Assembly: GCA_963829055.1 (NCBI GenBank)
Contig: CAWHHI010000017.1
Coordinates: 64,001 to 128,000 of the forward strand
Length of the DNA: 64,000 bases
Reading direction: 5' to 3'
From: an uncultured Gemmatimonadaceae bacterium
GTDB lineage: Bacteria; Gemmatimonadota; Gemmatimonadetes; Gemmatimonadales; Gemmatimonadaceae
The translations under genes were made by a program, and so were the position numbers. This document shows, in pieces, positions 39,760-59,309 of the stretch (within the stretch, counting starts at the first letter, position 1; each line of letters opens with the position of its first letter). Under the pieces are notes generated by a model. That model ran no database searches and was not told where the DNA came from. It worked only from the letters and a program-made list of their open reading frames with translations.

Positions 39760-39861
39760 GGGGCGGGACTGGGATCGGGGGTCGGGGCAGCGTGGGCATA
39801 GTGAACCGTGGCCAAGTGCAGCAGTCGGGCCGCGCGTCGCTGGCATTGATAGCTTTCGGCC

Positions 39862-40492
39862 ATGGCTGAGCGAAGGCACGGCGCGAAGGCGCCCGCCGAC
39901 GGATGGGACCGTGTCCGGGGCCGACTGGTCCGACAAGGACATTTCGGGCGAGACGCACGAGCGCGTCGCGTTCGTCGACCTCGACCTGACGGAGGTCGTC
40001 AACAACGGAGCGACGTTCTCCGAGTGCACGTTCCGTCGCGCGCGCTTCAACGCGTCGGTGCACACGGACGCGGCATTCATGAACTGCACATTCACGAATT
40101 GCAACTTCTTCGACGCGCAGTTCCATCAGTGCAAGCTCGTCGGAAGCATGTTCGACCGCTGCACGTTCGAGATCACGAAGGTGGTCGGCGGGAACTGGTC
40201 GCTGGTCGGATTGCCGGGCGCGGATCTCCGTAGCGCGTCGTTCACCGGCGCGCGCATGCGCGAGGCAGATCTCACGGGTGCGCGCTGTCGGGAGGGGTCG
40301 TTCCGCGACGTCGATCTCGCGGGTGCGCTGCTGGCGCGTGCGGACTTCTCGTTATGCGACCTGCGGGGGAGTGACCTGAGCTCGCTGGACCCGGCGGAGA
40401 CGGAGATCCGGGGCGCGATCATCACGCTCGATCAGGCGATCGTGATCGCAACCGCGCTCGGCCTCGATATCCGGGCGGATGAGGAGGACTGA
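39862..40492 (+). CDS. Pentapeptide-repeat protein (MfpA/Qnr-like fold), probable frameshift near the start
   Basis: Runs of A-D/S-L/F-x-x (ADLRS, ASFTG, ARMRE, ADLTG, ADFSL, CDLRG, SDLSS). Confidence 0.88.
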
Positions 40493-40670: not shown

Positions 40671-43367
40671 CTAGTCCCCTCGCAATACCTCCACCGGATT
40701 CGTCCGAGTAGCCCGCAGCGCCGGGACGTAGCTCGCGGCCAGTGCCGCGATCGCAAGCGTCGCAGCAACCAGCACCATCGTGATCGGGTCCGTCGGCGTG
40801 ACCGCGAACAGGAAGCTCGAGAGGAATCGCGTTAGGCCGAACGCCAGCACCAGACCCGCCACGATGCCGACGCCCGCCAGCGCCATCCCCTGCCGCACCA
40901 CCATCCCCGCCACGCTCGACGGCTTCGCACCCAGAGCCACACGGATGCCGATCTCCTTCCTCCGCTGTGCGACACCGTACGCGATGACACCGTAGATCCC
41001 GATCACCGCGATCGCCAGCGCCACGATCGAGAACGTCGAGAAGAGGAACATCAGGAATCGCGGCTGCGACACCGACTCGCCGCGCACTTCCTCCATGGTG
41101 CGGAACTGACCCACCGGAAGCTGGGCATCCAGCGCCGCGACCTCGCCACGCACCGCGCGCGTGAGCGTGGACGGCTCGCCGGTCGTCCGCAGCACGAGGT
41201 TCAGCGAGCGCATGACGGCCCCGCCACCCCAGAAGCGGAATTGCGTGTGCGCGAGATACATCTCGCCGACCGGCGTCGCCGCCAGGCTCGCCTGCCTAAC
41301 GTCGGCGACGATGCCGACGATCGTCACCATCCCCGGCCCGGCCTTGCCGCCGAGCTTGAAACGCTTGCCGATCGGGTCGTCGTTCTGCCAGTACTTCTTC
41401 GCCAGCGCTTCGTTGATCACGACCACGCCCGGAGTCGTTTCGAGATCCGTCTCCTCGATGCCTCGACCGCGAAGCAGCCGCATCCCGATCGCCTTGAAAT
41501 ACCCCGGCGTCACCACCTGCCAGTCCGCTCGGCGACGCGTCTCCCCCGGTGCGACCGGACGCCCCTCGATCTCGATGCCGAGGTCGCCCCGCTCCGCCAC
41601 GAGTGGCACGCCGGCGACGCCGCCGGCACTCGAGACACCCGGAAGTCCCGCGACACGGCGCGTGAGCTCCTGATAGAACCGCACGACGCGCTCGGTCTCC
41701 GCATAACGAGATGACGGCAGCGAGATCGGCACCGTGAGCACGTGGTCGACGCGGTAGCCGGGGTCCACCGACAGCAGTTGGACAAAGCTTCGCGTCATGA
41801 GGCCCGCACCGACGAGCAGCACGAGCGCGATCGCGACTTCGCTGATCACGAGCGTGCGGCGCGCCCCCTGCCTGACGCCGCCGGCCACGCCCCGGCCACC
41901 CTCGCGCAGCATCGACTGCACGTTGACGCGCGTCGCGTTCACGGCGGGAAGCAGCCCGAAGATCACGCCCACTACCGTCGATGCCGCCAACGCGAACAGC
42001 AGAACGCGGAAGTCGACGCCGATCGCGTCGAGACGCGGGATGTTCGGCGGACGCAGCGCGACGAGAAACCGAGTCCCGAGAAAGGCGAGCGCTATTCCAA
42101 CGACGCCACCCGTGAGCGACAGCACGACGCTCTCGACGAGCATTTGCCGCATGAGTCGCGCGCGACCGGCGCCGAGCGCGGTGCGCACCGCCATCTCGCG
42201 ACGACGCCCCTCGGTTCGCGACAACAGCAAGCTCGCGACGTTCGCGCAGGCGATGAGCAGCACGAACCCGACCGCGCCCAGCAACACCATGAGCGTCGGG
42301 CGCACTCGGCCGACGACACTGTCGAGCAGCGGCAGCGCGCCGCCGACGAAGTTCATCTTCGCCGGGTAATCGTTAGGGAAGTCCACCGGGAACCGACGCG
42401 CCACCGACGCCACGTCCGCACTCGCCTGACTCGGCGTCACCCCGCGGCGCAGTCGCGCGACGCCGGACAGGAAATGACTCCCGCGGATCATGGTGCTGTC
42501 ACGGCTCAATCCCAGCGGGACGAACAGCTGCGCGGCGTCGGTCTCCGAGAGCTGCTCGGGAACACGGAAGCCTTCGGGCATCACGCCGACGACAGTGGTC
42601 GCCGTACCATCGAGGATGATGCTCTTCCCGACGACGTCCCGCGCGCCACCGAAGCGGCGCTGCCAGAGTCCATAGCCGAGGACCACGACGTTGACGCCGG
42701 GGACATCCTCGGACGAGCTGATGACACGCCCGACTGCCGGAGCGACCCCGAGCGCCGGAAAAACACCCGCACTGAGCAGAACCGCGGGGAGACGTTCCGG
42801 CTCGCCATCTCCCGTTAGGCTGACCACGGCGGGCGTGTAGACGCCGAACGCCTCGAACGTCTTGGTGCCGTCGCGATAATCGAAGTACTCCGCGGGCGAG
42901 ACTGATGAGATCGCGCCGAGGATGTCGGCGTTCCCGTCCCACGTGTTGCGAATGGCGACGAGGCGCTCGGGCTCCGCGTAAGGCAGCGGTCGCAGCAGCA
43001 CGCCGTTCACGACGCTGAACAGCGCGGTGTTCGCGCCGATGCCGAGCGCGAGCGTGATGATCGCGACGATGGTGAAGCCGGGATTGCGGCGAAGCGCGCG
43101 CACGGCGTAGCGGAGGTCCTTCACGGTATTCTCGACGCCGTTCCCGCCGCGCGCGTCGCGGAGCTCGTCCTTCGTGCTCTCGAAGCCGCCGAACACCCGG
43201 GCCGCTTCGGTCCGCGCGGTGTTCGCGTCCAGCCCGCGCCGCTGGCGCGCCGAGGCCTCCATGTCGAGATGAAACCGGAGCTCGTCGTCGATCTCGCGCT
43301 CGACTGTTCGTCGATCGAACAGTGCGCGGAGACCGAACACCAGGCGTTGGATGATCGGTGCGGGCAT
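40671..43367 (-). CDS. ADOP duplicated ABC permease with N-terminal permease prefix
   Basis: EIDDELRFHLDM, DLRYAVRALRR, LALGIGANTALFS and LLIACANVA motifs; ends PVEVLRGD. Confidence 0.94.
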   Translation of the reverse strand: MPAPIIQRLVFGLRALFDRRTVEREIDDELRFHLDMEASARQRRGLDANTARTEAARVFGGFESTKDELRDARGGNGVENTVKDLRYAVRALRRNPGFTIVAIITLALGIGANTALFSVVNGVLLRPLPYAEPERLVAIRNTWDGNADILGAISSVSPAEYFDYRDGTKTFEAFGVYTPAVVSLTGDGEPERLPAVLLSAGVFPALGVAPAVGRVISSSEDVPGVNVVVLGYGLWQRRFGGARDVVGKSIILDGTATTVVGVMPEGFRVPEQLSETDAAQLFVPLGLSRDSTMIRGSHFLSGVARLRRGVTPSQASADVASVARRFPVDFPNDYPAKMNFVGGALPLLDSVVGRVRPTLMVLLGAVGFVLLIACANVASLLLSRTEGRRREMAVRTALGAGRARLMRQMLVESVVLSLTGGVVGIALAFLGTRFLVALRPPNIPRLDAIGVDFRVLLFALAASTVVGVIFGLLPAVNATRVNVQSMLREGGRGVAGGVRQGARRTLVISEVAIALVLLVGAGLMTRSFVQLLSVDPGYRVDHVLTVPISLPSSRYAETERVVRFYQELTRRVAGLPGVSSAGGVAGVPLVAERGDLGIEIEGRPVAPGETRRRADWQVVTPGYFKAIGMRLLRGRGIEETDLETTPGVVVINEALAKKYWQNDDPIGKRFKLGGKAGPGMVTIVGIVADVRQASLAATPVGEMYLAHTQFRFWGGGAVMRSLNLVLRTTGEPSTLTRAVRGEVAALDAQLPVGQFRTMEEVRGESVSQPRFLMFLFSTFSIVALAIAVIGIYGVIAYGVAQRRKEIGIRVALGAKPSSVAGMVVRQGMALAGVGIVAGLVLAFGLTRFLSSFLFAVTPTDPITMVLVAATLAIAALAASYVPALRATRTNPVEVLRGD

Positions 43368-43480
43368 CTATGCTCTCTCCTTCGGATGGCTCAGGATACC
43401 GTTCCTGTAGCCATTCGACAAGAGAAGGTGCCGGATGGTTTGCAGGGTGCGATCTTCGCGGATTGGTCGGTCTGGCTTGT

Positions 43481-43920
43481 CGCGCCGGGGCCGGTGGGAA
43501 CTACGATTTGGCGGATGAACTGCAAAACGCCGGGCTGTCATTCCGAGCGGAGCCGCGAAGGCGCAGTCGAGGAATCGCGATCATACGGGCAGAGGGCTCT
43601 ACCGGGACTCGATTCCTCGACTCGCTGCGCTCGCTCGGAATGACAGCCCGGCTTTGCATCGACGCATCATCGCGCCGGGGCCGGTGAGAACTGCGATTGG
43701 GCGGATGAAACGGAAGAAGCAGGATAGCGCCCGCGTAAGGGCCGGCTCCGCTCGCACCGAGCCGGGACTCTTTGGGAACGGCCGCTCGGGACGTCAATGC
43801 GTCCCGAGCGGCCGTTCCTATTTCAGTCACGCTCCGGCGAGAGCCAGCGTCGATGCAAAGCCGTATCCGGCCGTTTTCCGTGTCATCCGCAAAATCGTAG
43901 TTCCCACCGGCCCCGGCGCG
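43481..43920. repeat. Structured repeat family A, full copy with a nested family-B element at 43536-43645
   Basis: Terminal arms CGCGCCGGGGCCGGTGGGAACTACGATT / AATCGTAGTTCCCACCGGCCCCGGCGCG; body homologous to 54571-54911. Confidence 0.9.
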
Positions 43921-44020
43921 GTGAACCAGACGAGCAGATCCGCGACGATCGCCGCACGGCTATCGTCGCACAGCCAACTGTACCATCCCCGCACGTGTCT
44001 CAGCCGTTACCCCTCCCCGG

Positions 44021-46426
44021 ATGAAGACTCCGATGCTGACACTCGCGGGCGATGTGCGGTACGCGGTTCGGGCCCTCAGGCGACGTCCCGGCTTCACGAT
44101 CGTTGCGATCCTCACGCTCGCGCTCGGGATCGGCGCGAACGCTGCCATCTTCAGCGCCGTCCGCGGCATCCTGCTCAGTCCCCTGCCGTTCCGCGCACCC
44201 GAGCGGCTCGTGTCGTTCAACGCCGAGCAGTTCATCGCGAATGCGGAGTTGCTGCATCTGCAGCAGAACGCACGCACGCTCGACGGCGTCGCCGCTCTCA
44301 GCCCCGGATGGGGGATGGCGCTCACGGGCAGCGGCGAGGCAACTCAGCTCAACACGAACCGAGTCTCCACCAACCTCCTCGACGTGCTCGGCGTTCGACC
44401 AATGCTCGGGCGGACATTCGTCGACGGCGAGTCCATCCCTGGCCGCGAGACGGTCGCGATCCTCAGCCATGCACTCTGGGCCGAGCGGTTCGGGAGTGAT
44501 CGCTCGATCATCGGGCGCAGCATGGTGCTCGATGGCACGCCGTACACCATCGTCGGCGTTTTGCCACCGGGGTTCGAAGTGCTCGGTCGGCCAGCAGACC
44601 TGTGGACACCACTCGTCATCGACCCAACCGCCTGGTTCCATCGCGGCGCGACCGCATGGCTCGTCGCGCGACTCCGCGCCGGCGTGACGATCGAGCAGGC
44701 GCGCGCCGAGCTCGCGACGCTGTACCCGCGGATGCGCGAGGCCTACGACTTCGCGCCCGACTACTACAAAAACGCGACGCTGCTCCCATTGCAGGAGCGC
44801 GCCGTCGGAAGCGTGCGCACGGCGTTGCTCGTGCTGCTGGCGGCCGTCGGCTTCATCGTGATGATCGCCGGAGCGAACGTCGGGAATCTGTTGCTCATGC
44901 GCGCGGCCGGACGTCGACGCGAGATCGCCGTCCGCACCGCACTCGGCGCCACGCGCCGGCGGGTGCTCGCGCAGATGCTCGTCGAGAGCGTCGTTCTCGC
45001 GTTAGGTGGCGCCGCCGTCGGCGTCGCGCTCGGTGCGTTCGGCGTTCGCGTCCTTCGCGCGGCACTGCCGCCCGACACGCCACGGCTGTCGTCTATCACG
45101 CTCGACGCGCCAGTGCTCGCGTTATGCGCTGGCCTGGCGATTCTTCTCGGCATCGCGTTCGGGCTCGCGCCCGCCTTGCTCGCCAGCGGCGGCGACGTGC
45201 AGGACGCCTTACGCGGCGCGCGTGGTGTCGCCGGACGCGCGGGCGGTGAACGTGCGCGCGGCACGCTCGTGGTGGCGGAGGTCGCGCTGACGCTCGTGCT
45301 CGTGATCGGCGCAGGGTTGATGATGCGCACGCTCTGGTCGTTGTCGCACGTCGCGACCGGATTCCGACCCGACGGCGTATTGACCATGCGCCTTCAGCCG
45401 ACTGGCGGACGATTCGACACGGGAGCGAAGCAGGGCGAGTACGTGACCACCGTACTCGAACGGCTCGCACGATTGCCGGGCGTGCAGTCGACAGGCGCGA
45501 TCCATCACCTGCCGCTGGCGGGGCTCTCGTGGTATGCGAACGTCGATCTCGAGGGGCGCGTCAGGCCCGCTGGAGAGCCGCCGATGCGATCCGGCTGGCG
45601 CGTCATTGCCGGCGACTACTTCCAGACGATGCGCATTCCACTCATCCGCGGTCGCGCGTTCAGCGCGACGGACACGCGCGAGGGCCCGCCGGTGGCGATC
45701 GTGAGCGACGCGTTCGCCCGCATCGCCTGGCCTGGTGAGGACCCCATCGGCAAACGATTCCTCGCCGGGAACGCGACGCGTGGTGGCGCCGTGACCGTCG
45801 TGGGTGTTGTTGGAGGCGTTAGGCACGTGACGCTCGACGCGGCGCCGGCCCCGGAGCTCTACCGGCCGATCGCGCAGACGCCGATGGCCGCGGTGACGGT
45901 CGCCGTACGAACCACGGGCGACCCACTGGCCCTGGCGGCGCTCGCGCAGCAGGCAGTCCGCGCGATCGACGCCAATGTTCCGATCTCCGACGTGCGATCG
46001 CTCGAACAGGTGATGTCGACGTCCGTCGCCCGCCCTCGGCTCATCATGGCGCTGTTGCTCGTGTTCGCGGGGGTCGGCACGGTGCTGGGCGCGGTCGGGG
46101 TCTATGGGGTGATCGCGTACGCGGTGGGCGAGCGGCGCCGTGAGATCGGCGTCCGCATTGCGTTAGGCGCGGAGCCGAGTGCGGTCGCGGCCGCGGTGGT
46201 GTTGCGGGGTGTGCGGTACGCGGCGATTGGCGTGGGCGTGGGCCTCGCCGGGGCGCTGGCGGTGACGAGAGTGATGCGAACGCTGTTGTTCGGGGTCAGC
46301 GCTACCGATCCCGTGACATTCGTCGGCTTGGCGGTGCTCCTGATACTGATTGCGGCACTGGCGAGCTACTTACCGGCGCGTCAGGCGTCGACGATCAACC
46401 CCATGGAGGCGATGCGCGCGGATTGA
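44021..46426 (+). CDS. ADOP duplicated ABC permease
   Basis: DVRYAVRALRR, LALGIGANAAIFS, REIAVRTALGA and GVYGVIAY motifs; ends PMEAMRAD. Confidence 0.94.
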   Translation: MKTPMLTLAGDVRYAVRALRRRPGFTIVAILTLALGIGANAAIFSAVRGILLSPLPFRAPERLVSFNAEQFIANAELLHLQQNARTLDGVAALSPGWGMALTGSGEATQLNTNRVSTNLLDVLGVRPMLGRTFVDGESIPGRETVAILSHALWAERFGSDRSIIGRSMVLDGTPYTIVGVLPPGFEVLGRPADLWTPLVIDPTAWFHRGATAWLVARLRAGVTIEQARAELATLYPRMREAYDFAPDYYKNATLLPLQERAVGSVRTALLVLLAAVGFIVMIAGANVGNLLLMRAAGRRREIAVRTALGATRRRVLAQMLVESVVLALGGAAVGVALGAFGVRVLRAALPPDTPRLSSITLDAPVLALCAGLAILLGIAFGLAPALLASGGDVQDALRGARGVAGRAGGERARGTLVVAEVALTLVLVIGAGLMMRTLWSLSHVATGFRPDGVLTMRLQPTGGRFDTGAKQGEYVTTVLERLARLPGVQSTGAIHHLPLAGLSWYANVDLEGRVRPAGEPPMRSGWRVIAGDYFQTMRIPLIRGRAFSATDTREGPPVAIVSDAFARIAWPGEDPIGKRFLAGNATRGGAVTVVGVVGGVRHVTLDAAPAPELYRPIAQTPMAAVTVAVRTTGDPLALAALAQQAVRAIDANVPISDVRSLEQVMSTSVARPRLIMALLLVFAGVGTVLGAVGVYGVIAYAVGERRREIGVRIALGAEPSAVAAAVVLRGVRYAAIGVGVGLAGALAVTRVMRTLLFGVSATDPVTFVGLAVLLILIAALASYLPARQASTINPMEAMRAD

Positions 46427-46430
46427 GGTC

Positions 46431-46557
46431 GTCATTCCGAGCGGAGCGCCGTCAGGCGCGGAGTCGAGGAATCGCGATCGTACCGGTAGAGGGCCCTCTA
46501 CACCGCAGGCCAAGGATTCCTCGACTCCGCCGCTTCGCGGCTCCGCTCGGAATGACA
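46431..46557. repeat. REP-like palindrome family B
   Basis: Same termini and inner stem as the other B copies. Confidence 0.9.
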
Positions 46558-46612
46558 ACCCGCTCGGAAGCGAGTGGCGTGACTTCGACCGCCGCTCACG
46601 GGTTGTATTCCC

Positions 46613-49086
46613 GTGAGGCAGCCTGCTGCTACTACACCTACTGACGCGTTCGCTCTGGACCTGCGCCGCGTCGTGCGGCGACTCGTGCGCGCCCCCGGGT
46701 TCGCCGCCACCGTCGTGCTCTCGCTCGCGATCGGCATGGCGTCCGTCATCGCGCTGCTCGGCGTCATCGACACACAGCTCTTTCGCGACCCCGCCGGTCT
46801 CCGCGACCCACGTCGCGTCGTCGCCATTGGACCGTGGGCCGGCTTCGCGCGAACATCCTACCCCGACTTCGTCGACCTCCGCGACCAGGGGCGATCGCTC
46901 GAGTCCGTCGGCGCGTTCGGAGTCTGGAACTACTCCGCGCGCGTCGGCAGCGCCGTAGCGCCAGCCCGCGGACTTCTCGCATCGCACTCGCTGCTGCCGA
47001 CCCTCGGCATGGCGCCCGCCATTGGTCGCACGTTCGTCGCAACCGAGGACCGGCCGGGTGCACCGACGGTCGCTCTCATCGGTGCCGGCCTTCGACATCG
47101 GTTCTTCAACACTGATCGCGAAGCACTGGGCAAGACGGTCCGGCTCGCCGGTATCGACTTCACGATCATCGGCGTCCTTCCGTCGAGCTTCACCGCGCCC
47201 GACATGTCGCCGGTCGACCTCGTGCTGCCGATCGAGAACGCCCCGTGGTTCGGAGGACGCGAAGCGCTCGTCAACCGCGACTTTCAGTGGGTTCGCATCG
47301 TCGGCCGATTGCGGCCGGCAGCTCGGCGGCCGCCGCGAGCGCGGAAGCGAGCGCGATCTACCGGCGCGCGAATGTCGGCGTTCGCGCGGTCGATCAGACG
47401 ACGCTCGCGCGCGAGACGATTCCCGTTCGCTCGTTGCGTGAGGCGCGCCGCGATCCGAGTGCGCCGAGCGCGCGGGTGTCCGTGTGGCTCACGGCGCTGG
47501 CGGCCGTGGTCCTGCTCATCGCGTGCGCGAACGTCGCCAGCCTCTTCGTCGCGCGCGGCGTCGCCGACCAGCACGAGCTCGCGATCCATGTGGCGTTAGG
47601 CGCGACCAGTGGGCGACTCGCGCGCCGCGCGCTGCTCGAAGTCGGGATCCTCGTCGTGCTCGCGGTCGTGCTCGCGCTGATCACAGCGCGCTTCGCATCC
47701 ACCGCGCTCGGCGCCTTGCTGGCCAATACGCTGGCCCCCACGCCGATTGATGTACGCACCGGCGCGATCGCGGCTGGCATCGCGGCGATCACGTGCGTGG
47801 CCTGCGCGCTCGGTCCAGTCGTACGGGCGACACGAGTGAACCCGCGTTCGACGCTCGGCATCCAGTCGCGGACGGTGGCGTCATCGCATCGGTATGCGCT
47901 GCGCACGCTCGTCTCTCTCCAGGTCGCGCTCGGCGTCGTACTCGTCTCCGAAGCGGCGGTGTTCGCCGCCAGTCTGCGCAACGCGACCCGCGTGGACCTC
48001 GGCTTCGATCTCGATCGTCTCGTTGTTGCGGACGTCGACCTGCGAGCGGCGGGGTTCACGCCGTCGACGAGCTCGAGCGCCGCGGCCCGCGCGCTCGACG
48101 CCGTGCGTCGCATTCGGGGCGTCACCGCTGCGGGGATGACCAACGCCGCCACTGTTCCAGGCTATCTCAATCCGCCGGTGCGAGTACCCGGTCGAGATTC
48201 GGTACCCGCCGGAATCGACGACAGCGAGCCGTACGTCAACTCCGTGACGGCCGGTTTCCTCGAGGCGTTAGGCGTGCCGCTGCTGCGCGGGCGACGACTG
48301 ACCGAAGACGATGAACGCGCGGCCAGACCGGTCCTGCTCGTGAGCGAGCGCTTCGCCCACCTGTACTGGCGTGGCGAGAACGCGATCGGCCAGTGCGTGC
48401 GAGTCGGACGGTCGCTGTCGACGCCGTGCGCACAAGTCGTTGGTGTGGTCGGGGACCGCCGCGGCTCGCCCGGCGCGACGCACGGCGTGGCCGAGGTGTA
48501 TCTGCCGTCGACGTCGTCAGCGATGCCGGCGGATCTGGCGCAGGCGTTCCTCGGACGCGAGCTGGCGGTGCGCGTCGACCCCGGCCACCCGGAGGTCGCG
48601 ACCGCCGTGCAACGGAATCTGCTCGACGCGATCCCCGCGCTGACGTCCGTACGCGTGCGTGTGGGCGACGACTACCTCGAGCGGCAGACGCGATCGTGGC
48701 GCCTGGGCGCGGCGGTGATCGGTGTCTTCGCCGCGGTCGCACTGCTGCTGGCGGCGGTTGGCGTGTTCAGCGTGTGGTCGCACGCGGTCGCAACACGACG
48801 CCGCGAGCTCGGCATTCGCGGCGCGCTCGGCGCTCGACCCGGTGACCTCGCGTGGCTCATCGTCCGCGACGCGCTGGCGGTCGCGTCGGTGGGGGCTGTG
48901 TTCGGAATCGCTGTGGCCGTCGCGGCGGGCGGCGCGGTCCGGTCGATGGCCTTCGGAATCTCGCCGCTGGACCCACGCGTCTTCGCGGTCAGCTGCATCG
49001 CGTTCGTGCTCGTGACCTGCCTGGCGACGATCGGACCCGCCTTGCGAGCGGCGTTCACGGATCCGAGGGGGGCGTTGGCAGGCTAG
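46613..49086 (+). CDS. Divergent ADOP permease, frameshift near 47330
   Basis: DLRRVVRRL, SYPDFVDLR, LLIACANVA and RELGIRGALGA motifs. Confidence 0.87.
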
Positions 49087-49099
49087 TGGATTGCTTCCC

Positions 49100-49232
49100 A
49101 GATGTTGAATAGCAGGCGAGGCAGGCCCTATTGCCAGATTTGGCCATACACGCCGCAGCTCGCCCCGGTGCAGCGGCTTTGCCGTTGGCCAAATCTGGCA
49201 ATGAGGCCAGAATCGCCTGCTATTCAACATCT
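49100..49232. repeat. 133-bp single-copy palindrome between convergent genes
   Basis: Perfect 20-bp outer arms AGATGTTGAATAGCAGGCGA and 17-bp inner arms ATTGCCAGATTTGGCCA. Confidence 0.88.
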
Positions 49233-49253
49233 CAGACGTGTTCCACTAGGCCA

Positions 49254-50033
49254 TCACGCCGGCATCTGCTCTCGGAGCCGCTTGCTCTTCTTCAGTGCGC
49301 GCGCCCAGGCCCAGAAAACCACCACGAGCGCGATCCCGGTGGCGAGGACCGCGTGACGGACCGGGTGCGCGCTCCATGGCTGGTAACGCAGGGAGTCCGC
49401 CAGCATCAAAACGAACGCACCGGCGATCCAGTACGCGGAGCTGCCGTATTCCTTGAGGATGACGCGTCGCCAGTTGAACGCCATGCCTTGCATCGACGTG
49501 GCAAAGCCGCCGAGACGTACTCTCCAGCGCGGTACGCGCGCCGCGTACGCGTCGTACTGGGCGCCGAACTTCCGTCTCAGAAATGCCTCTTCGGCGGCAA
49601 CAATCGCGGAGTAGCCGATGAGGAAGAACGGCACTCCGACGAGATACGCCGCCGGTGCGTTCCATGTGAGCAGCAGCCCGAGCAGAATGAGCAGGTTGCC
49701 AACGTAGAGCGGATTGCGCGAATGATTGAAGAACCCGCCGGTCACGAGATCCTCGGCGTATACCTGCCGGTTCTTCCCACCACGGATGATGTACGCGTAG
49801 CCAACGACCGCCACGCGCAGTGCCTGCCCGAGCAGCGCGACGCCGAAGCCGACGAGATCGAGTGCGGTGTCATAGTCGTCGCGCCCGCGTGGCCAGTGTG
49901 GCCGCGTGAGAACGAACAGCGCGAGGAGTACCGCGGGGAAGATTCCGTCGCGGTACTTGAAGAGGAAGTTGCCGTAGCGGACGAGCGCTGACGGCACGGT
50001 GTCGTCGGCGGAGGTCGTGGCCGGCGAGATCAT
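49254..50033 (-). CDS. Isoprenylcysteine carboxyl methyltransferase / PEMT (Ste14-like) membrane protein
   Basis: LVTGGFFNHSRNPLYVGN; EEAFLRRKFGAQYDAYAARVPRW; multiple TM helices; ATGA overlap with cmoA. Confidence 0.9.
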   Translation of the reverse strand: MISPATTSADDTVPSALVRYGNFLFKYRDGIFPAVLLALFVLTRPHWPRGRDDYDTALDLVGFGVALLGQALRVAVVGYAYIIRGGKNRQVYAEDLVTGGFFNHSRNPLYVGNLLILLGLLLTWNAPAAYLVGVPFFLIGYSAIVAAEEAFLRRKFGAQYDAYAARVPRWRVRLGGFATSMQGMAFNWRRVILKEYGSSAYWIAGAFVLMLADSLRYQPWSAHPVRHAVLATGIALVVVFWAWARALKKSKRLREQMPA

Positions 50034-50851
50034 TTGACGGCGATCATCCCGGCGAAGTTGTACCAGCGGAAGAACTCCTGGAACTTCGTGAAGCCGCACT
50101 CCAGTAGCAGATCCCGATTTTCGTCGAGGCGATAGGGGATCAGCACGTTCTCCAGCGCTTCGCGCTTGCGCGCGATCTCCATGTCGGAGTAGCCGTGCCG
50201 CCGCTTCATGTCGTAGTAGTTGTCGATGAAGAGGCGGTTGAACAGCGTGTCGCTCTCAATGACCTTCTCGGCCACGATGATCGCGCCCTGTTTGCGCGTT
50301 CCCTCGGCGATCGTGCGGATCACGCGGTCGCGGTGCAGCGGACGGACGAACTGGAGCGTGAACAGCATGACGGTGACGGAAGCGTTCTCGATCGCGAACG
50401 GCTCGTGCAGGTCGGCGAGCCGTATCTCGCGCTGACGGGACGGTGGCAGCGTCGTGAGCTTCTGGCGTGCCCGCTCCACCATGTCGGGTGCGTTGTCGTA
50501 GCCAACGAACGCGATCGAGGGGTCGAGTTGCGGCTCGAGCGCCAGGAACGTCGTGCCCGTGGAGCAGCCGAGGTCGTAGACCGTGGTACCAGGCACGGCG
50601 AACTCCGCGGCGAGCTCCGCGGTCATACGTTGGATCTCGCCGTAAAACGGCACCGAGCGGCTGACCATGTTGTCGAACACGCGCACGGTGGTCGCGTCGA
50701 ACGTGAAGTCCGTGGGGCGTGTGGTGCTCTCCGCGAAGATGTCGTCCGTCGGCTCGCCGCCGGGCGTGATCGGTGCCGGCATGCCAGCACCCACTGTTGC
50801 GGTGTCAACGGCCGTGTGCGCTTCGCCGTTCGACCTCGGTTCTGGTGTCAT
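50030..50851 (-). CDS. cmoA: Carboxy-S-adenosylmethionine synthase CmoA homolog
   Basis: FTFD...VFDNMVSRSVPFY, YDLGCSTG, IENAS...FTLQF, AEK, GYSDMEIARKREALENV and FRWYNF are colinear with E. coli CmoA. Confidence 0.88.
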   Translation of the reverse strand: MTPEPRSNGEAHTAVDTATVGAGMPAPITPGGEPTDDIFAESTTRPTDFTFDATTVRVFDNMVSRSVPFYGEIQRMTAELAAEFAVPGTTVYDLGCSTGTTFLALEPQLDPSIAFVGYDNAPDMVERARQKLTTLPPSRQREIRLADLHEPFAIENASVTVMLFTLQFVRPLHRDRVIRTIAEGTRKQGAIIVAEKVIESDTLFNRLFIDNYYDMKRRHGYSDMEIARKREALENVLIPYRLDENRDLLLECGFTKFQEFFRWYNFAGMIAVK

Positions 50852-51204: not shown

Positions 51205-52458
51205 TTGAGCACCGTCACCACCCTGGCCCACGACGCCCCGTTCTCAATCCGGCGAACGGCCATCACGCGAGGTGCGACGTACTTCGTCGCCTGGACCGTC
51301 GTCGCGTTCACGACGTCCGAGCTGCAGTACGTCGCGCAGCCCGCGAGCAACGCGCAGCCGTACGGCCGCCTGTTGCGGATGGCGCTCGCGAGCTGCTGGC
51401 TGTGGGCCGCGTTCACCCCCGCGATTCTCGCGTTCGCGCGACGGATTCGCATCGATCGCACGAACTGGCCGCGTACGCTTCCGGTGCACCTCGCCGCCGC
51501 CGCTGCCGCGACGTTCCTGGACGTCTGGCTCATGCACGCGATCATGCCGTTCGTGAGCCCGGACGCGCCGATGAATCGCGTCCCCATTCACATCGTCTTC
51601 CTGCGGCAGCTGTTCCTGTACTCGGTCTGCTACTTCGTGATCATGGCGCTCGCGCACGTGCGCTACTACGCGGGCCTCTCGTACGAACGCGACCTCCGCG
51701 CCGCGCAGCTCGAGGCGCAGCTCTCGGCCGCGCGCCTAACGGCGCTCCAGGGACAGCTCCGGCCGCACTTCCTGTTCAACACGCTGAACATGATCGCCGA
51801 GCAGGTCTACACGGACCCGGCTGGCGCGGACGCGATGCTGACGCGGCTCGGCGTGTTGTTGCGGTCGTCGTTCATCGAGACCGACCGCGAGCGCGTGCCG
51901 CTGCATCGCGAGCTGGAATTGCTCGAGAGTTACGTCGAGATCATGCGTGCGCGCTTCCATGGACGCCTGACATTCGAGCTCGACATCGATCCGGCGACGC
52001 TCGACGCGTTGGTCCCGCGGTTCATGCTGCAGCCGCTCGTGGAGAATGCCATCAAGCACGGCGTCGAGCCTCGTGAGGAAGGTGGCCGCGTGACCGTGAC
52101 TGCCCGTCGTCAGGGCGATTCGCTGACACTCGACGTCCGCGACAACGGCGACGGGCTCGCCGGCGCGATCCGCGAAGGCACCGGCGTTCGCAATACGCGC
52201 GAGCGGTTACAACATCTCTATGGCATCGCGCGTCAGCAGTTCGCGCTCGCGCCCGCACCGGGCGGCGGCACGGTCGCATCGCTCGTCATCCCGTTCGACA
52301 CGGACGACGGCCCGGCGGACAGCTACACGGCGACGGCACCGGGCACCGCGTCGGACACCCGAGGTGCCACGGTTCCCGGCCGTGCACCCCTGCCCTCATC
52401 GCCTGACGTGCCAGCGATGCCGGGTGTCGGGCCTGCGTTCCGGCGAGGCGTGTCATGA
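51205..52458 (+). CDS. LytS/YehU-type sensor histidine kinase
   Basis: TM helices; QLRPHFLFNTLN; LQPLVENAIKHG; GTGVRN. Confidence 0.92.
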   Translation: MSTVTTLAHDAPFSIRRTAITRGATYFVAWTVVAFTTSELQYVAQPASNAQPYGRLLRMALASCWLWAAFTPAILAFARRIRIDRTNWPRTLPVHLAAAAAATFLDVWLMHAIMPFVSPDAPMNRVPIHIVFLRQLFLYSVCYFVIMALAHVRYYAGLSYERDLRAAQLEAQLSAARLTALQGQLRPHFLFNTLNMIAEQVYTDPAGADAMLTRLGVLLRSSFIETDRERVPLHRELELLESYVEIMRARFHGRLTFELDIDPATLDALVPRFMLQPLVENAIKHGVEPREEGGRVTVTARRQGDSLTLDVRDNGDGLAGAIREGTGVRNTRERLQHLYGIARQQFALAPAPGGGTVASLVIPFDTDDGPADSYTATAPGTASDTRGATVPGRAPLPSSPDVPAMPGVGPAFRRGVS

Positions 52459-53267
52459 CGCTACTCCGCGTCCTCATCGTCGACGATGAGGCGTTTGCGC
52501 GCCAGCGGCTCCGTCGCCTGCTCACGGAGCTTCAGGACATCGAGGTCGTCGGCGAGGCCGCGAACGGGCGCGAGGCGGTCGCGCTGATCACGCAGCACGA
52601 CCCTGACGTGGTGCTGCTCGACGTGCAGATGCCGCGTGTCGATGGCTTCGGCGTGCTGCGCGCGCTCGACGGGCCCGCGCCTCTCGTGATCTTCGTGACG
52701 GCGTTCGACGAGCACGCCGTGGCCGCGTTCAACGTCCACGCGTTCGACTACATCCTCAAGCCGGTGGACCCGGCGCGTTTCGCGGACGCCATCGCGCGTG
52801 CCCGCGCGCAGATCGAGCAGTCGACGATCGCCGAGCGTCATGCGAAGCTCGTGGCGTTTCTGGATGCGTCGCCGGGCGCACCGACGCGGGACGTTGCCGT
52901 GCCCGCCGCCGAATCGGCGACGGCGAGCGGGCGCGCGCCACTCGATCGATTGCTCGTCAAGGAGGAGGGCAAGATGTATTTCGTGCCCGTCGCCGAGATC
53001 GACTGGATCGAGGCGTTCGGCAACTACGCGCGTCTGCATACGGGGCCGCGCACCCACCTCATTCGCGAGACGATGTCGACGCTCGAGCGCGCGCTCGACG
53101 TGCGTCGCTTCGCGCGCATCCATTGCTCGACGATCGTGAATCTCGATCGCATCAGGCAGATGGATCTGTGGGGCTCGGGAGATTACATGGTGCGGCTGGC
53201 CGATGGCACGCAGCTCAAGCTCAGCCGATGGTATCGGGATCGGCTCGAGGCGCGGTTGCGACCGTAG
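52455..53267 (+). CDS. LytTR response regulator
   Basis: IVDDE, LLDVQMP, FVTAFD, DYILKP; FARIHCS and LSRWYR; ATGA overlap with the kinase. Confidence 0.93.
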   Translation: MTLLRVLIVDDEAFARQRLRRLLTELQDIEVVGEAANGREAVALITQHDPDVVLLDVQMPRVDGFGVLRALDGPAPLVIFVTAFDEHAVAAFNVHAFDYILKPVDPARFADAIARARAQIEQSTIAERHAKLVAFLDASPGAPTRDVAVPAAESATASGRAPLDRLLVKEEGKMYFVPVAEIDWIEAFGNYARLHTGPRTHLIRETMSTLERALDVRRFARIHCSTIVNLDRIRQMDLWGSGDYMVRLADGTQLKLSRWYRDRLEARLRP

Positions 53268-53271
53268 CATT

Positions 53272-53313
53272 GGGAATCGGGGATCGGGAATCGGGAATCG
53301 GGAATCGGGAATC
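53272..53313. repeat. Heptamer tandem repeat (GGGAATC)x6
   Basis: GGGAATC GGGGATC GGGAATC GGGAATC GGGAATC GGGAATC. Confidence 0.9.
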
Positions 53314-53447
53314 GCACGTGCAGGTCGTCCCACCGATGTGCAGATCATCACGCCGGCCTTCGTTCGCCGGCCGAGTGGCGTGAGTTTCGGGTCCACTCCT
53401 GCCTGACGAGAATGATGCTACGCTCCGCATTGCCTCCACGCGCGCGC

Positions 53448-54560
53448 ATGTCCGCGCTGAAGTTCATTACCGTTGTTGGCACTACGGCCGTCGCCGTTCT
53501 TGTGCCCCTCTGCCACGCCATCGCGCAACCGCCGGCGCCGCGACACGCGGTGCTCGCCGTGCCGTCCAAGTATCCGTCCATTCAGGCGGCGATCGACAGC
53601 GCCATGAACGGCGATACCGTGCTCGTCGCGCCCGGGCGGTACTACGAGAACATCCGCTTCAAGGGAAAGGGCATCGTCGTCACGAGCCAGTTCGCGCGCA
53701 CGCGCAACGAGGCGGACATCGAGCGGACCATCATCGACGGCAGTCGGCCGACGCACCCCGATACGGGGACAGTCGTTAGGTTCGTCAACCAGGAGGACTC
53801 GACGGCGGTGATCCAGGGATTCACGATCACCGGCGGCACGGGCACCGTGTGGCTCGACGCGAAGGACGTGACGTACTTCCGCGAGGGCGGCGGGATCCTG
53901 TGCGAGCTCGGGTCGCCGACGATTCGCTTCAATCACATCGAGAACAACAGCGCGGTCTCGAAGGCGAAGAACGTGAAGGGCGACTCGTTGATCAGCGCCG
54001 GTGGCGGCGCCATCCGCTGCGGCTACTCCGAGCCGACGATCACGAACAACGTCATTCGCGGCAATCACGGGCGCTACGGCGGTGGCGTCGTGCTGTTCTA
54101 CTCCGCCGGCATCGTGAAGAACAACCTCATCGTCGACAACGACGGCGGCGAGGACTTCGGTGGCGCCGGGCTGTGGATCGTCGGTGGGTTGAGCTATCGG
54201 CTGTCGACGCTCGTCGAGCACAACACGATCGTCAATAACCGATCGATGACACCGGATTCCGCGCGCGGCATGAAGGGCCGCGGCGGCGCCATGATCGCGG
54301 CCGGCACGAAGGTCGTGTTCCGAAACAACATCGTGTGGGGTAACGCGCAGAGCGCGGGCAATCAGGTGAGCTACTCCCCGGCGACGCCGCCCGAGATGAG
54401 CAACAACATCGTGCAGGGTGGTCTGCCGGGCACGGGCAATCTCGATAAGGATCCGCAGTTCGCCGACATGACACGCTTCACGTTGAAGCCGGATTCGCCG
54501 GCGAAGCGCGGCGCCGGTTTCGAGCTCGGCGCCTATGGTGGCGTGCCGCGTACTCGCTGA
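53448..54560 (+). CDS. Secreted right-handed parallel beta-helix (pectin-lyase-like) protein
   Basis: VPSKYPSIQAAID..GDTVLVAPGRYYENI; repeated GGGI/NNxIxxN; GNLDKDPQF. Confidence 0.85.
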   Translation: MSALKFITVVGTTAVAVLVPLCHAIAQPPAPRHAVLAVPSKYPSIQAAIDSAMNGDTVLVAPGRYYENIRFKGKGIVVTSQFARTRNEADIERTIIDGSRPTHPDTGTVVRFVNQEDSTAVIQGFTITGGTGTVWLDAKDVTYFREGGGILCELGSPTIRFNHIENNSAVSKAKNVKGDSLISAGGGAIRCGYSEPTITNNVIRGNHGRYGGGVVLFYSAGIVKNNLIVDNDGGEDFGGAGLWIVGGLSYRLSTLVEHNTIVNNRSMTPDSARGMKGRGGAMIAAGTKVVFRNNIVWGNAQSAGNQVSYSPATPPEMSNNIVQGGLPGTGNLDKDPQFADMTRFTLKPDSPAKRGAGFELGAYGGVPRTR

Positions 54561-54570
54561 CACGCGGCTT

Positions 54571-54911
54571 GCATCATCGCGCCGCGGCCGGTGGGGACTA
54601 CGATTTGGCGGATCGGTACTGCGAAACTGCCGGATACTGCTCTGCATCGACGCATCGTCCCGCACGGCCGGTGGGAACGGCGATCGCGCGGAGGACGCGG
54701 AAGAAGCAGGATCGATCGCGTTCGGGACGGCCCCTCGCGCCACGAGCCGGGATTCTTTGGGAACGGCCGCTCGGGACGCAGGAGTCTCCCGAGCGGCCGT
54801 TCCTCTGTCATTCAGGCCGCGGCGAGAGCCAGCGTCGATGCAAAGCCGGATCCGGCCGTTTTCCGTGTCATCCGCAAAATCGTAGTTCCCACCGGCCCGG
54901 AGCGCTGATGC
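54571..54911. repeat. Structured repeat family A, full copy
   Basis: GCATCA...GGCCGGTGGGGACTACGATTTGGCGGAT ... ATCCGCAAAATCGTAGTTCCCACCGGCC...TGATGC; inner GGAACGGCCGCTCGGGA/TCCCGAGCGGCCGTTCC stem. Confidence 0.9.
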
Positions 54912-55032: not shown

Positions 55033-56859
55033 ATGCACCCACTGCTCCGCACGATCCTAACGCTCTCGCCGGCCCTTCTTTCGGCGGCGCGCCTCGACCT
55101 CGGCGTCGCGCCCAGGGCAGCCCCGACGAGCGTCATTCGCGTCAATCAGCTCGGGTACCTGCCTAACGCTCCCAAGACGGCCGTGATGTGCGTCGTCCCC
55201 GACTCGCTGGGCGGCGGTGGCACGTGGCTCCCACCCGCGTCCGTGCCCTTCACCGTCGAGGACACCACCGGTCGCCGCGTGCTCGCGCCGCGCACCGCCA
55301 GCGCCGCCGGTCAATTCGGACCCTGCGCACAGACGTACCGGCTCGACTTCTCGTCGCTTCGAAAGCCCGGCCGCTACCACATCGTCTCCGCTGGCGTTCG
55401 CTCGCCCGTCGTGCGCATCGACGCCCGCGCGTACGCCGGCGCCGCGGACACGCTCCTCTACTACATGCGCCAGCAGCGCTCGGGCTACAACCCGACGCTC
55501 AAGGATTCCGTTCACAAGCGCGACGGGATCATCGTCGATCACCCGACGCGCACCGGTGAGTTCATCAACGTGAGCGGCGGCTGGGCCGACGCCGCGGACT
55601 ATCTGCAGTACGTCACGACGTCCGCGACCGCCACCTACGTCATGCTCAAGGCGCGTCACGAATTTCCGCGCGCGTTCTCCGACAACTTCGCCGCGACCGG
55701 TCTCCCGGGCGCGAATGGCGTCGACGACGCGCTCGACGAGGCGCGCCATGGACTCGAGTGGCTGCTGCGCATGTTCCCGGACGACTCGACGATGTTCAAC
55801 CAGCTCGCTGACGACCGCGATCACACGTACTTCGATCTGCCGACGTCCGACTCCGCGGACTACGGCTGGGGCAAGGGCAAGGAGCGCCCCGTGTATCCGT
55901 GCACGGGCAAGCCGCAGGGGCTTTTCACCGGAAAGAATCGCGCGACGGGCTACGCGTCCACGGCCGGCAAGTACGCGGCGACGTTCGCACTCGCCTCGCG
56001 TGCGTATGCGACCACGGACCCCGCGTTCGCGCGTCGGCTCCGCGAACGGGCGCTGGCGGCGTACGCGTTAGGCGTGAAATACCCCGGCAACTGTCAGACG
56101 GCGCCCGGCAAGTCGCCGTACTTCTACGAAGAAGAGAACTGGGCGGATGACATGGAGCTCGGAGCGGCCGAGCTCTACGCGCTGACGCGCGAACAGCGGT
56201 TTCTGCGGGATGCGTTAGGCTACGCCGCGAAGGAGCCGGTCACGCCGTGGATGGGCGCCGATACGGCGCGTCACTATGAATGGTACCCCTGGATCAATCA
56301 CGGCCACGACGCGGTCTGGCGCGTCGGTGACGCGTCGGCCAAGCGCCTCATGGCCAGCTACTACCGCCAGGGCCTCGAGCGTGTAGCCGCGCGCGCGAAA
56401 ACCAACGGCTTCCGCGTCGGCATCCCGTTCATCTGGTGCTCGAACAATCTCATGTCGGCGTTCGCGACGCAGGCGCTGATCTATCGTCGCATGACGGGCG
56501 ACGAGCGCTTCCGCGAGTACGAGGCAGCGGCGCTGGACTGGCTGTTCGGCGCGAACCCGTGGGGCACGTCGATGGTGATCGGCCTGCCGTGGTCAGGCAC
56601 CTGGCCACACGATCCGCATTCGGTGCTCGCCAAGCAGCTTGGCGTGGAGACGCAGCTCGGCGGTCTCGTGGATGGCCCGGTCTATCGTTCGATCTACGCC
56701 AACCTGCGCGGCATCCGCCTGTTCGACCCGGACGAGTACGCGCGGTTCAACACGGGCTTCATCGTCTATCACGACGACCTGGGCGACTACTCGACGAATG
56801 AGCCGATCATGGACGGGACAGGCATGCTCACGTACCTGCTCGCTGCGCTCGCGCCGTGA
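55033..56859 (+). CDS. Glycoside hydrolase family 9 with N-terminal Ig-like domain
   Basis: IRVNQLGYLP..PKTAV; GGWADAADY; DDMELGAAELY; GANPWG; DYSTNEP. Confidence 0.9.
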   Translation: MHPLLRTILTLSPALLSAARLDLGVAPRAAPTSVIRVNQLGYLPNAPKTAVMCVVPDSLGGGGTWLPPASVPFTVEDTTGRRVLAPRTASAAGQFGPCAQTYRLDFSSLRKPGRYHIVSAGVRSPVVRIDARAYAGAADTLLYYMRQQRSGYNPTLKDSVHKRDGIIVDHPTRTGEFINVSGGWADAADYLQYVTTSATATYVMLKARHEFPRAFSDNFAATGLPGANGVDDALDEARHGLEWLLRMFPDDSTMFNQLADDRDHTYFDLPTSDSADYGWGKGKERPVYPCTGKPQGLFTGKNRATGYASTAGKYAATFALASRAYATTDPAFARRLRERALAAYALGVKYPGNCQTAPGKSPYFYEEENWADDMELGAAELYALTREQRFLRDALGYAAKEPVTPWMGADTARHYEWYPWINHGHDAVWRVGDASAKRLMASYYRQGLERVAARAKTNGFRVGIPFIWCSNNLMSAFATQALIYRRMTGDERFREYEAAALDWLFGANPWGTSMVIGLPWSGTWPHDPHSVLAKQLGVETQLGGLVDGPVYRSIYANLRGIRLFDPDEYARFNTGFIVYHDDLGDYSTNEPIMDGTGMLTYLLAALAP

Positions 56860-58021: not shown

Positions 58022-59309
58022 ATGACCAGCCTGCCGAACCCTCGAACGATGCGGTCCGTCACCTCAATGCGCGGTGACGGGGACGAACCGTCACGCCCGG
58101 CAGGATTCGCCTGGCGATTCGTGCTCGCAAACCGTCGCGATGGATCAGGGATCTGGGGAGCGGCGTGCCTCGTGTTCGCCTCGCAGAACGCGCTGCGCTA
58201 CATCATGCGCGACCAGGCGGTGGACTGGGTCAACGCGCTGTGGATGGAAGCGCTGTACTGGGTCCCGTGGCTCGTGCTCACGCCCGTCCTGCTCGCGACG
58301 GCGCGTCGCAAGCCGCTCGGCTCCGGCGCACCGCGGTCGAACGTGTGGTGGCACCTCGGGTGTCATGGTCGCGCTGTCGCTCGTGCAGGTCGTCAGCCGC
58401 CGATGCGCTGCAGTATCCGGTGGCGGTCGCGCATGGCTTAGTCCCAGTGGCGCTGACCGGCTCCGCGCACGCGCTGGAGACGTACCGCCGCTCGTTCCCG
58501 GCGCTCGTGATCACCGTGTGGTGGAAGTACTGGGTGTTCATGGGCCTCTACTACGCGTTCGACTATCACCGTCGCTTCCGCGAGCGCGAGGTCGCGGCGG
58601 CGCAACTCGAGACGCAGCTGGCGACGGCGCATCTGCAGGCGCTGCGGATGCAGCTCAATCCGCACTTCCTGTTCAACGCGCTGCACTCGGCGGCGATGCT
58701 GACGATGATCGACCCCGACGGCGCGCACCGCGTGCTCGTACAGCTGAGCGCGCTGCTTCGGACGACGCTCGACCGCTCATCAGCGGCCGAGGTGCCGCTC
58801 TCGGAGGAGATCGACTTCGTCGACCGCTACCTGGCGATCGAGCGCATTCGGTTCCAGGATCGGCTTCGGCGTCGAGATCGAGGCCGATGACGATGCGCTG
58901 TCGGCGATCGTGCCGAACCTGATCCTGCAGCCACTGGTGGAGAACGCGGTGCGCCACGGGATCGCGCGCCGAACCGACGCCGGCGACCTCACGATTCGCG
59001 CGGTGCGGCGCGGGGGTCTCCTCGTGGTCGAGGTCGAGGACGACGGCCCCGGGCTTCCCGCGGGTTGGACGTTCACCCCACCGGAGGGGAGCGGCGTCGG
59101 CCTGACGAATGTCCGCTCGCGGCTCGAGCGGCTGTATGGAAGTCAGGGTCGACTCGAGCTGCTGACTCCAACGGATGAAGCCGGCCGGCCAACGCACGGG
59201 TGTGCTCGCGCGCGTGACGATCCCGTTCCGCGTCGCTGCGCCGTCGCCCCGCCGTCGCGAAGTCGCGTCCCCGATTCCCAGTGCACAATCCCCAGTCCCC
59301 ACCGCATGA
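58022..59309 (+). CDS. LytS/YehU-type sensor histidine kinase, several frameshifts, start uncertain
   Basis: TM helices; QLNPHFLFNALH; LQPLVENAVRHG; GVGLTNVRSRL; TGA overlaps the regulator ATG. Confidence 0.87.

Follow-up and report, generated by a model that had tools for sequence, protein, structure and literature searches.

A window of 64,000 nucleotides from an uncultured Gemmatimonadaceae bacterium (GenBank assembly GCA_963829055.1, contig CAWHHI010000017.1) carries on its minus strand a gene for a CmoA-type synthase of carboxy-S-adenosylmethionine (carboxy-SAM), followed directly by a gene for an integral membrane transferase with the fold of isoprenylcysteine carboxyl methyltransferase (ICMT). 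The two genes probably constitute a cassette independent of cmoB, in which the membrane enzyme is a carboxy-SAM-dependent carboxymethyltransferase. An earlier note on this DNA had suggested that the membrane enzyme uses carboxy-SAM on a substrate in the cell envelope, an interpretation that is now supported but unproven.

The Synthase and Its Overlapping Partner

The cmoA-type gene (50030..50851, minus strand, 273 aa) and the membrane gene (49254..50033, minus strand, 259 aa) share the tetranucleotide ATGA at 50030..50033 (minus strand), in which the TGA of cmoA overlaps the ATG of its partner. Read from the DNA, this arrangement suggests translational coupling. The product of the cmoA-type open reading frame (ORF) scores 222.5 bits on TIGR00740, above the cut-off of 193.3, and 153 bits on PRK15451, under the cut-off of 285. 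It matches the PDB entries 4GEK, 1IM8, and 4IWN (E ~1e-44 to 1e-41) and aligns end to end with the E. coli and Haemophilus CmoA structures, with about 30 N-terminal residues falling outside the family model. The earlier note had reported both the overlap and a clear CmoA homologue with the KR..LENV arginine and the motif LFTLQF; the overlap is confirmed, and the TIGR00740 score and the alignment bear out the homologue.

The segment K198-R199-x-x-L-E-N-V (E. coli numbering) is kept in the window CmoA. Its arginine, here Arg230 (codon 50162..50164, minus strand), corresponds to E. coli Arg199, which we take to bind the carboxylate of carboxy-SAM. Also retained are Y39, D89, T134-Q136-F137, and K165, which together with R199 are presumably the active-site residues that matter for this comparison. 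The Arg199 equivalent is invariant in 50 of 50 rows of the CmoA alignment (A2), and the paired CmoA clade as a whole is about 35% identical to E. coli CmoA. Only one CmoA copy above the cut-off was found in the host genome. Judged by its sequence, the window CmoA very probably makes carboxy-SAM from S-adenosylmethionine (SAM) and prephenate.

A Membrane Transferase Related to LmtA

The candidate carboxymethyltransferase was assigned through PF04191, TIGR04571, a structural model, and a tree. It scores 42.4 bits on PF04191 (PEMT), shows five hydrophobic segments in a crude hydropathy scan, and carries the RxPxY and EE motifs of the ICMT/PEMT superfamily. The predicted model (pLDDT 91.8, pTM 0.89) superposes over residues ~18–173 on the ICMT structures 5V7P, 5VG9, and 4A2N with Z 10.2–11.4, a root-mean-square deviation (rmsd) of ~3 Å, and 142–145 aligned residues; Z is 11.4 to 5VG9 and 11.0 to 4A2N, with an rmsd of 3.0 Å, and two more helices follow the ICMT core at the C-terminus. 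A Foldseek search with this model gave no match at E ≤ 0.001, and its top four matches were ICMT-fold chains. All clusters returned by the ESM Atlas were bacterial and bore PEMT/ICMT or LmtA names. A match to BstC in a single-sequence PDB search was rejected as chance.

The curated family closest to the membrane protein is LmtA (TIGR04571), on which it scores 96.1 bits over model positions 9–198 of 252. On the ICMT family NF040696 it reaches 31.7 bits against a cut-off of 160. The Ste14/PEMT-type membrane methyltransferase proposed earlier therefore stands as to domain and fold, with the refinement that LmtA comes ahead of ICMT as the nearest curated family. LmtA of Leptospira interrogans is a lipid A 1-phosphate O-methyltransferase that uses SAM (PMC4402001, consulted in part). 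For comparison, 80 LmtA-like loci were collected, whose proteins reach up to 245 of the 325 bits required by TIGR04571; no protein passed that cut-off in any of 40 genomes. In a quick, midpoint-rooted tree of a 74-row subset, paired and LmtA-like proteins form two clades, each with a Shimodaira–Hasegawa-like approximate likelihood ratio test (SH-aLRT) value of 100, and by this tree the paired membrane proteins are the sister clade of the LmtA-like proteins. This kinship narrows the likely acceptor.

Conservation of the Pair

Whether the pairing recurs across taxa had been raised as a check, and it does recur across phyla. Among the best 80 of 202 loci found with CmoA as query, the membrane gene lies downstream of cmoA in 77; of the other three, two lie at contig ends and one is a true miss (L078). 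With the membrane protein as query, cmoA lies upstream in 19 of 24 loci, and the remaining five are weak matches, four of them LmtA-like. A membrane profile built from 58 members gave at least 600 matches; of the best 80 examined, 77 loci were new, and every one of these had a cmoA-like neighbour. An even sample of 401 genomes from the alphaproteobacterial class of genome G019 contained 13 with the membrane gene, all 13 paired, while the LmtA-like control loci had no cmoA-like gene (0/80). Some loci repeat a contig, and later counts were made on de-duplicated proteins; one unpublished genome (G032) supplies one row in several of the counts and a further two in the 401-genome baseline, and no conclusion depends on these rows alone.

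Record titles place the pair in at least ten phyla (Gemmatimonadota, Acidobacteriota, Pseudomonadota, Bacteroidota, Verrucomicrobiota, Planctomycetota, Nitrospirota, Omnitrophota, Hydrogenedentota, and Eisenbacteria), along with records labelled Deltaproteobacteria. All named hosts belong to diderm lineages, and the membrane clade was not found in 301 sampled genomes from the phylum of an Actinomycetota record. Its distribution within lineages is patchy, with carriers making up 4 of 151 genomes in the window's own phylum and 13 of 401 in the alphaproteobacterial class. Cultured, non-pathogenic carriers include Gemmatirosa kalamazoonensis KBS708, Ensifer adhaerens, and Pseudoxanthomonas spadix DSM 18855. 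The membrane gene also occurs on 18 plasmid or chromid records (Ensifer, Rhizobium, Sinorhizobium, and Gemmatirosa), and both genes were present in all five plasmid regions fetched from these. On a conjugative plasmid of Rhizobium sp. T1470 (L318), the pair has only IS630, IS21, and four group II intron maturase genes around it.

The link also appears to survive a change of partner. Eight loci (Massilia, Ramlibacter, Pseudoxanthomonas, Acidovorax, and Burkholderiales) combine the same membrane clade with a CmoA only 28–30% identical to that of the window; two of these pairs are convergent, on opposite strands. The gene order is swapped in L141. The divergent CmoAs fall under the TIGR00740 cut-off in the two that were scored, and they lack R199; their basic residue is instead at position 203, a feature also of two phage homologues. 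They form a clade of their own (SH-aLRT 99), while their membrane partners nest inside the clade marked by Arg84 (see below), so the CmoA–membrane link outlasts partner replacement and reordering. Both the membrane and the CmoA tree are quick trees with long-branch warnings. The divergent CmoAs may likewise make carboxy-SAM.

Fused CmoA–transferase forms were not found at E ≤ 1e-20 among 8000 longer candidates, which is weak evidence, and five pattern matches in viral contigs included no relative. A PD-(D/E)XK nuclease-like ORF lies between cmoA and the membrane gene at L108:6766-7152, with gaps of similar size in L084 and L087. In Erwinia phage Y3 (L315, 2501–4169), the gene after a phage cmoA is asparagine-synthase-like, and the 5.8 kb shown contains no annotated DNA methylase.

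Arg84 Marks the Paired Clade

Residues were compared between 158 proteins encoded next to cmoA and 88 others, after four short or frameshifted rows had been dropped. Position 84 is Arg in all 158 cmoA-adjacent proteins and Thr in 86 of the 88 others; of the two non-Thr exceptions, one is a locus whose cmoA is truncated at the contig end, and the other comes from a genome that has two cmoA genes elsewhere. Eight neighbouring plain PEMT proteins, inspected by eye, do not have Arg at this position. The only unpaired member of the Arg84 clade seen, L221 (G039:C68:9-758), follows an operon resembling those of tripartite ATP-independent periplasmic (TRAP) transporters, in a genome with two cmoA genes and cmoB elsewhere.

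Arg84 lies in the loop G78-x-x-Y81-I-x-R84-G-G86 (49776..49802, minus strand; Arg84 codon 49782-49784). In the alignment to beetle ICMT (TcICMT), this loop falls on residues 181–188, with Y81-I82-x-R84 on F184-N185-H186, while R73 corresponds to Arg173 and I144 to Arg246. The ICMT loop 184–186 reportedly lines the methyl group. A basic residue in the cofactor pocket had been named in the earlier note as something to look for; a clade-specific, invariant candidate exists in Arg84, whose putative position in the pocket is given by hidden Markov model (HMM) alignment.

Much else is shared with the LmtA-like proteins. G21, F25, R28, G69, R73, R106, P108, Y110, N113, I144, E148, and E149 are invariant or nearly so in both clades, which have in common an N-terminal G-x3-F-x2-R, R73, RxPxYxGN, I144, EE, and C-terminal helices with basic residues; E195, R245, and K248 are present in most proteins of either group. 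The clades differ in that the G-T-S-G-R loop of LmtA-like proteins is Y-I-x-R-G-G in the paired clade, and that E142-R143 (of an E-R-I-M motif) is lost in the window protein, with A143 instead. At position 143, 78 of 88 LmtA-like proteins have Arg, whereas most paired proteins have Ala, Ser, or Cys. Leptospira LmtA itself is not part of this comparison.

Apparent Absence of cmoB

The earlier note had seen no cmoB in the window. This is confirmed, and cmoB was likewise not found in the host genome or in most genomes with the pair. The best TIGR00452 score in window and host genome was 38 bits against a cut-off of 275, and the best tblastn match of E. coli CmoB in the host genome was 43.5 bits; the genome is only 85.9% complete, so the absence of cmoB is not proven. 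Above the TIGR00452 cut-off, cmoB occurs in 3 of 50 genomes, in none of a further five (four carriers and one control), and in none of 15. In the three positive genomes (G007, G031, and G039), all CmoA copies found fall in the paired clade in a quick tree, a hint from sequence that this clade may be able to make carboxy-SAM; all three are incomplete metagenome-assembled genomes (MAGs).

The host genome also has an unlinked LmtA-like paralogue (L193, C16:900535-901146) with a T-S-G-R loop and 167–170 bits on TIGR04571, whose match ends at model position 204 and whose tail looks frameshifted. Its lpxC is matched in two pieces (C16:587470-588184), and a U32 peptidase gene contains an in-match TGA (C16:460908-461473), which suggests that assembly errors are common.

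Proposed Mechanism and Acceptor

The CmoA homologue would, with high probability, convert SAM and prephenate to carboxy-SAM in the cytoplasm. Carboxy-SAM may then be bound by the ICMT-fold protein at the cofactor site on its cytoplasmic side, where Arg84 would pair with the carboxylate of the donor, a part played by a basic residue in CmoB and CmoX. In CmoX, Arg350 replaces an Asn and contacts the carboxymethyl group, and this single Asn-to-Arg change marks the donor switch (PMC12783734, in part); in CmoB, the corresponding residues are Lys91/Tyr200/Arg315 (PMC10491745, in part), and the pocket residues are confirmed in a further paper (PMC7496830, in part). R84 would thus act like Arg350 in CmoX or Lys91/Arg315 in CmoB. 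The carboxymethyl group, CH2COO− (+58.005 Da), would be moved by an SN2 reaction onto the anionic head group of an inner-leaflet lipid, and an anionic envelope lipid may thus be the acceptor.

The last and weakest step concerns the identity of that lipid. From the kinship with LmtA, the acceptor would be the 1-phosphate of Kdo2-lipid A and the product a phosphoglycolate diester, in which the phosphate is capped and the negative charge kept. Lipid A 1-phosphate is a tentative assignment, somewhat short of an even bet. It is favoured, next to the LmtA kinship, by R28, R73, E195, R245, and K248 and the C-terminal helices shared with LmtA-like proteins. Genes with PmrA/QseB/CopR-like products favour it weakly: such regulators, none over its family cut-off, stand beside 10 of 162 pair loci compared with 2 of 80 controls. 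The presence of lpxC in 52 of 53 genomes with the pair also favours it.

Taken together, and with the same tentativeness, the cassette may encode the first integral-membrane (ICMT-fold) carboxymethyltransferase as part of a mobile two-gene unit, carried by about 3% of sampled genomes of the diderm groups, that draws on carboxy-SAM to cap lipid A 1-phosphate with a so far undescribed carboxymethyl (phosphoglycolate) group. In some cases the cassette would come with genes of its own for prephenate supply, a PmrAB-like regulator, and a second methyltransferase, which may esterify the carboxylate.

Weighing the Alternatives

Several observations weigh against this reading. In the window CmoA, the position of E. 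coli N132 is Leu (LFTLQF), though it is variable in phage homologues too. The membrane protein lies far under the TIGR04571 cut-off of 325 bits, and the control group consists of LmtA-like proteins, not of tested LmtA. The alignment that places Arg84 has a gap next to it. Arg84 and the pairing each characterise a single clade, so that the 158:0 contrast largely reflects one event in evolution. Since Y81, N107, and R169 are found in ordinary PEMT-family proteins as well, R84 (with G85) is the one distinctive feature. Because Arg143 of LmtA-like proteins is Ala, Ser, or Cys in the paired clade, R84 could replace an acceptor-binding Arg instead of binding the donor carboxylate. Two of the three cmoB-positive genomes have the pair. 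As for lipid A, its biosynthesis (lpx) genes do not recur near the pair, and carriers within the sampled class show no enrichment of lpxC (12 of 13 against 353 of 401 overall), a comparison that is uninformative. Sampling covered a single monoderm phylum, and the genes next to the pair in the window (ABC permeases and a LytTR system) give no hint of the substrate.

The chemistry may be as proposed and the acceptor another: a phospholipid head group, undecaprenyl phosphate, another glycolipid, or a membrane-bound thiol or amine. Enzymes of the ICMT/PEMT fold act on varied lipids, and the missing lipid A neighbours and lpxC enrichment would fit such an acceptor, as would the Rce1-like (CAAX protease family) genes that adjoin the pair in L053, L055, L066, L085, and L167 and echo the eukaryotic Rce1–ICMT sequence. 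As a sub-case of carboxymethyl transfer this has a real but minor share of the probability; the closest curated family and the sister clade are LmtA-like over most of their length, and the diderm hosts and the empty Actinomycetota sample also speak for lipid A. It is more doubtful that the membrane protein is an ordinary SAM-dependent carboxyl methyltransferase. In that case an unlinked enzyme would attach the carboxymethyl group, and the membrane protein would esterify it as a membrane counterpart of CmoM, holding the acceptor carboxylate with R73 and R84. ICMT methylates carboxylates held by Arg173 and Arg246 (PMC8358657, in part); R73 matches Arg173 while Arg246 is Ile144, so R84 could stand in for Arg246, and the loss of R143 in the paired clade points the same way. 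Yet neighbour clustering found no third gene common to the unit across phyla that could be the true carboxymethyltransferase, with synteny at the level of lineages only (such as NfuA in Chitinophagaceae). On plasmids and among insertion sequence elements the two genes move without companions, and a better candidate for esterification exists in the plain PEMT that is found, as a second gene or a fused domain, next to 8 of the 162 pair loci.

Slightly less probable again is a CmoA-like protein of changed function, either a plain methyltransferase or a regulatory sink for SAM or prephenate, beside a membrane protein that methylates a lipid with SAM as LmtA does. The unkept N132, the PRK15451 score, the low identity to E. 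coli CmoA, and the divergent partners with a basic residue at 203 in place of R199 would agree with this; the TIGR00740 score, the retention of F20, F28, S35, P37, Y39, T134, Q136, F137, E164, K165, K185, K198, and R199, the prephenate-supply genes near the pair, and the three incomplete cmoB genomes in which only this CmoA clade was found speak against it. Least credible, and in our view very improbable, is a membrane gene that merely hitchhikes while CmoA serves an unrecognised tRNA or small-molecule carboxymethyltransferase elsewhere. G007, G031, and G039 do have cmoB, their genomes are incomplete, and in G039 two cmoA genes, cmoB, and the membrane gene are all unlinked. Such a history fits poorly, however, with near-universal adjacency over at least ten phyla despite patchy presence, or with the order swap in L141 and the replacement of partners, and no TrhO-type domain (PF17773) was found in the host genome. 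Carboxymethyl transfer by the membrane enzyme remains the preferred reading.

Comparison With Known Carboxy-SAM Systems

The pair resembles the cascades in which a carboxy-SAM synthase is coupled to a carboxymethyltransferase, and by family membership it falls outside the CmoA/CmoB system, ICMT proper, and LmtA. Like CmoA/CmoB, which forms uridine 5-oxyacetic acid (cmo5U34) in tRNA (E. coli; PDB 4GEK), it has a CmoA-family synthase with R199, and the E. coli cmoA (1203–1946) likewise overlaps the start of cmoB (1943–2914; L313). Unlike CmoB, a soluble Rossmann-fold enzyme, the partner here is a polytopic membrane protein of the ICMT fold, and cmoB itself is missing from the host genome and most carriers as far as these were searched. 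E. coli K-12 makes its own carboxy-SAM.

Other carboxy-SAM cascades are TglE/TglF (3-thiaglutamate), MccS with the MccB C-terminal domain (microcin C-like compounds), and phage CmoA/CmoX (5-carboxymethylcytosine, 5cxmC, in DNA) (PMC10491745; PMC12783734; both in part). Here too a CmoA homologue stands beside a dedicated methyltransferase homologue, theirs being one that accepts carboxy-SAM, and the membrane protein shares with carboxy-SAM-dependent carboxymethyltransferases in general the genetic link to a synthase. In the passages of these papers available to us, the acceptors are tRNA, peptide, nucleotide, or DNA, unlike the lipid proposed for the pair. To our knowledge, and within those passages, the known carboxy-SAM enzymes are soluble, and none has an ICMT fold or a lipid acceptor.

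The differences from the two membrane families are equally specific. The paired clade adjoins cmoA, unlike the LmtA-like genes, and reaches 96 of 325 bits on TIGR04571. From ICMT/Ste14 (5V7P, 5VG9, and 4A2N) it keeps the fold over residues ~18–173 and the equivalent of Arg173, and departs in Ile144 for Arg246, the extra C-terminal helices, and the low NF040696 score. No description of the pair or of carboxymethylated lipid A was found in the literature, which was covered in part and without supplements, so that the CmoA papers may contain a mention in a supplement or a network figure.

If the proposal is true, it adds a fifth use of carboxy-SAM to the four described in the papers examined, as excerpted (tRNA, a peptide-derived amino acid, a microcin, and phage DNA), in another enzyme fold and at the membrane, and predicts a lipid modification for which no description was found. 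A carboxymethylation cassette would explain many genomes annotated with "cmoA, tRNA modification" that have no cmoB, and would point to envelope-lipid carboxymethylation, so far undescribed, in many Gram-negative bacteria. If lipid A is the target, the modification would bear on outer-membrane charge, cation binding, and recognition by phages and hosts.

Neighbouring Genes and Surroundings

A gene for 3-deoxy-D-arabino-heptulosonate 7-phosphate (DAHP) synthase or chorismate mutase lies within 3.5 kb of 22 of 162 pair loci, many of them kin, compared with 0 of 80 LmtA-like control loci. An upstream DAHP synthase or DAHP synthase–chorismate mutase fusion is found in Gemmatimonadota, Acidobacteriota, and Eisenbacteria, a downstream one in Bacteroidota, and a lone mutase in L165; this lineage-dependent arrangement indicates that the association arose more than once. 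These neighbours agree with the use of prephenate by CmoA. The window itself has no such neighbour, and the host genome has such genes elsewhere.

Near single pairs lie genes for PAP2 (including one in Ensifer canadensis), MprF-like, and O-antigen-ligase proteins, which also favour a lipid A acceptor weakly. The R84 transferase and a second, plain PEMT-family domain form a single fused protein at L050:6806-8218, and separate second PEMT genes occur near the pair in L071, L144, L145, L153, L154, L157, L186, and L334. By analogy with CmoM on tRNA, one may speculate that such a second PEMT could esterify the new carboxylate.

In the window, the pair is flanked by three large ABC-permease-like genes within 40671–49086 (FtsX/MacB domains shown for 47245–49086) and by two LytS/LytTR-type two-component pairs (51205–53267 and 58165–60148, the first confirmed by Pfam). 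Nearby are genes for a glycoside hydrolase family 9 (GH9) protein (55033–56859), a GH1-like protein (38560–40104), and a pentapeptide-repeat protein (39731–40492), and the nearest database records are from Gemmatimonadaceae. The cassette has a GC content of 63–66%, slightly under the 69–73% upstream; it resembles other nearby stretches, so no GC islet is claimed. In four soil RNA runs, searched as contigs with depth 2–5, contig X1 (212 nt) matches 49917–50128 exactly across the gene junction and X6 matches 49903–50053, matches that do not show transcription of the cassette.

Between the 3′ end of the cassette and the converging ABC-permease gene lies an imperfect palindrome (49083..49249) with 64-nt arms that are 83% complementary. 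With twelve other, diverged copies in the genome, at 72–76% identity, it is a dispersed repeat and probably not specific to the cassette. It is like a repetitive extragenic palindromic (REP) element or a miniature inverted-repeat transposable element (MITE), and may serve as a terminator. Spurious-ORF translations recur in the intergenic regions ~43500–43830, 46430–46620, 53300–53500, and 54530–54900, which suggests further families of dispersed repeats.

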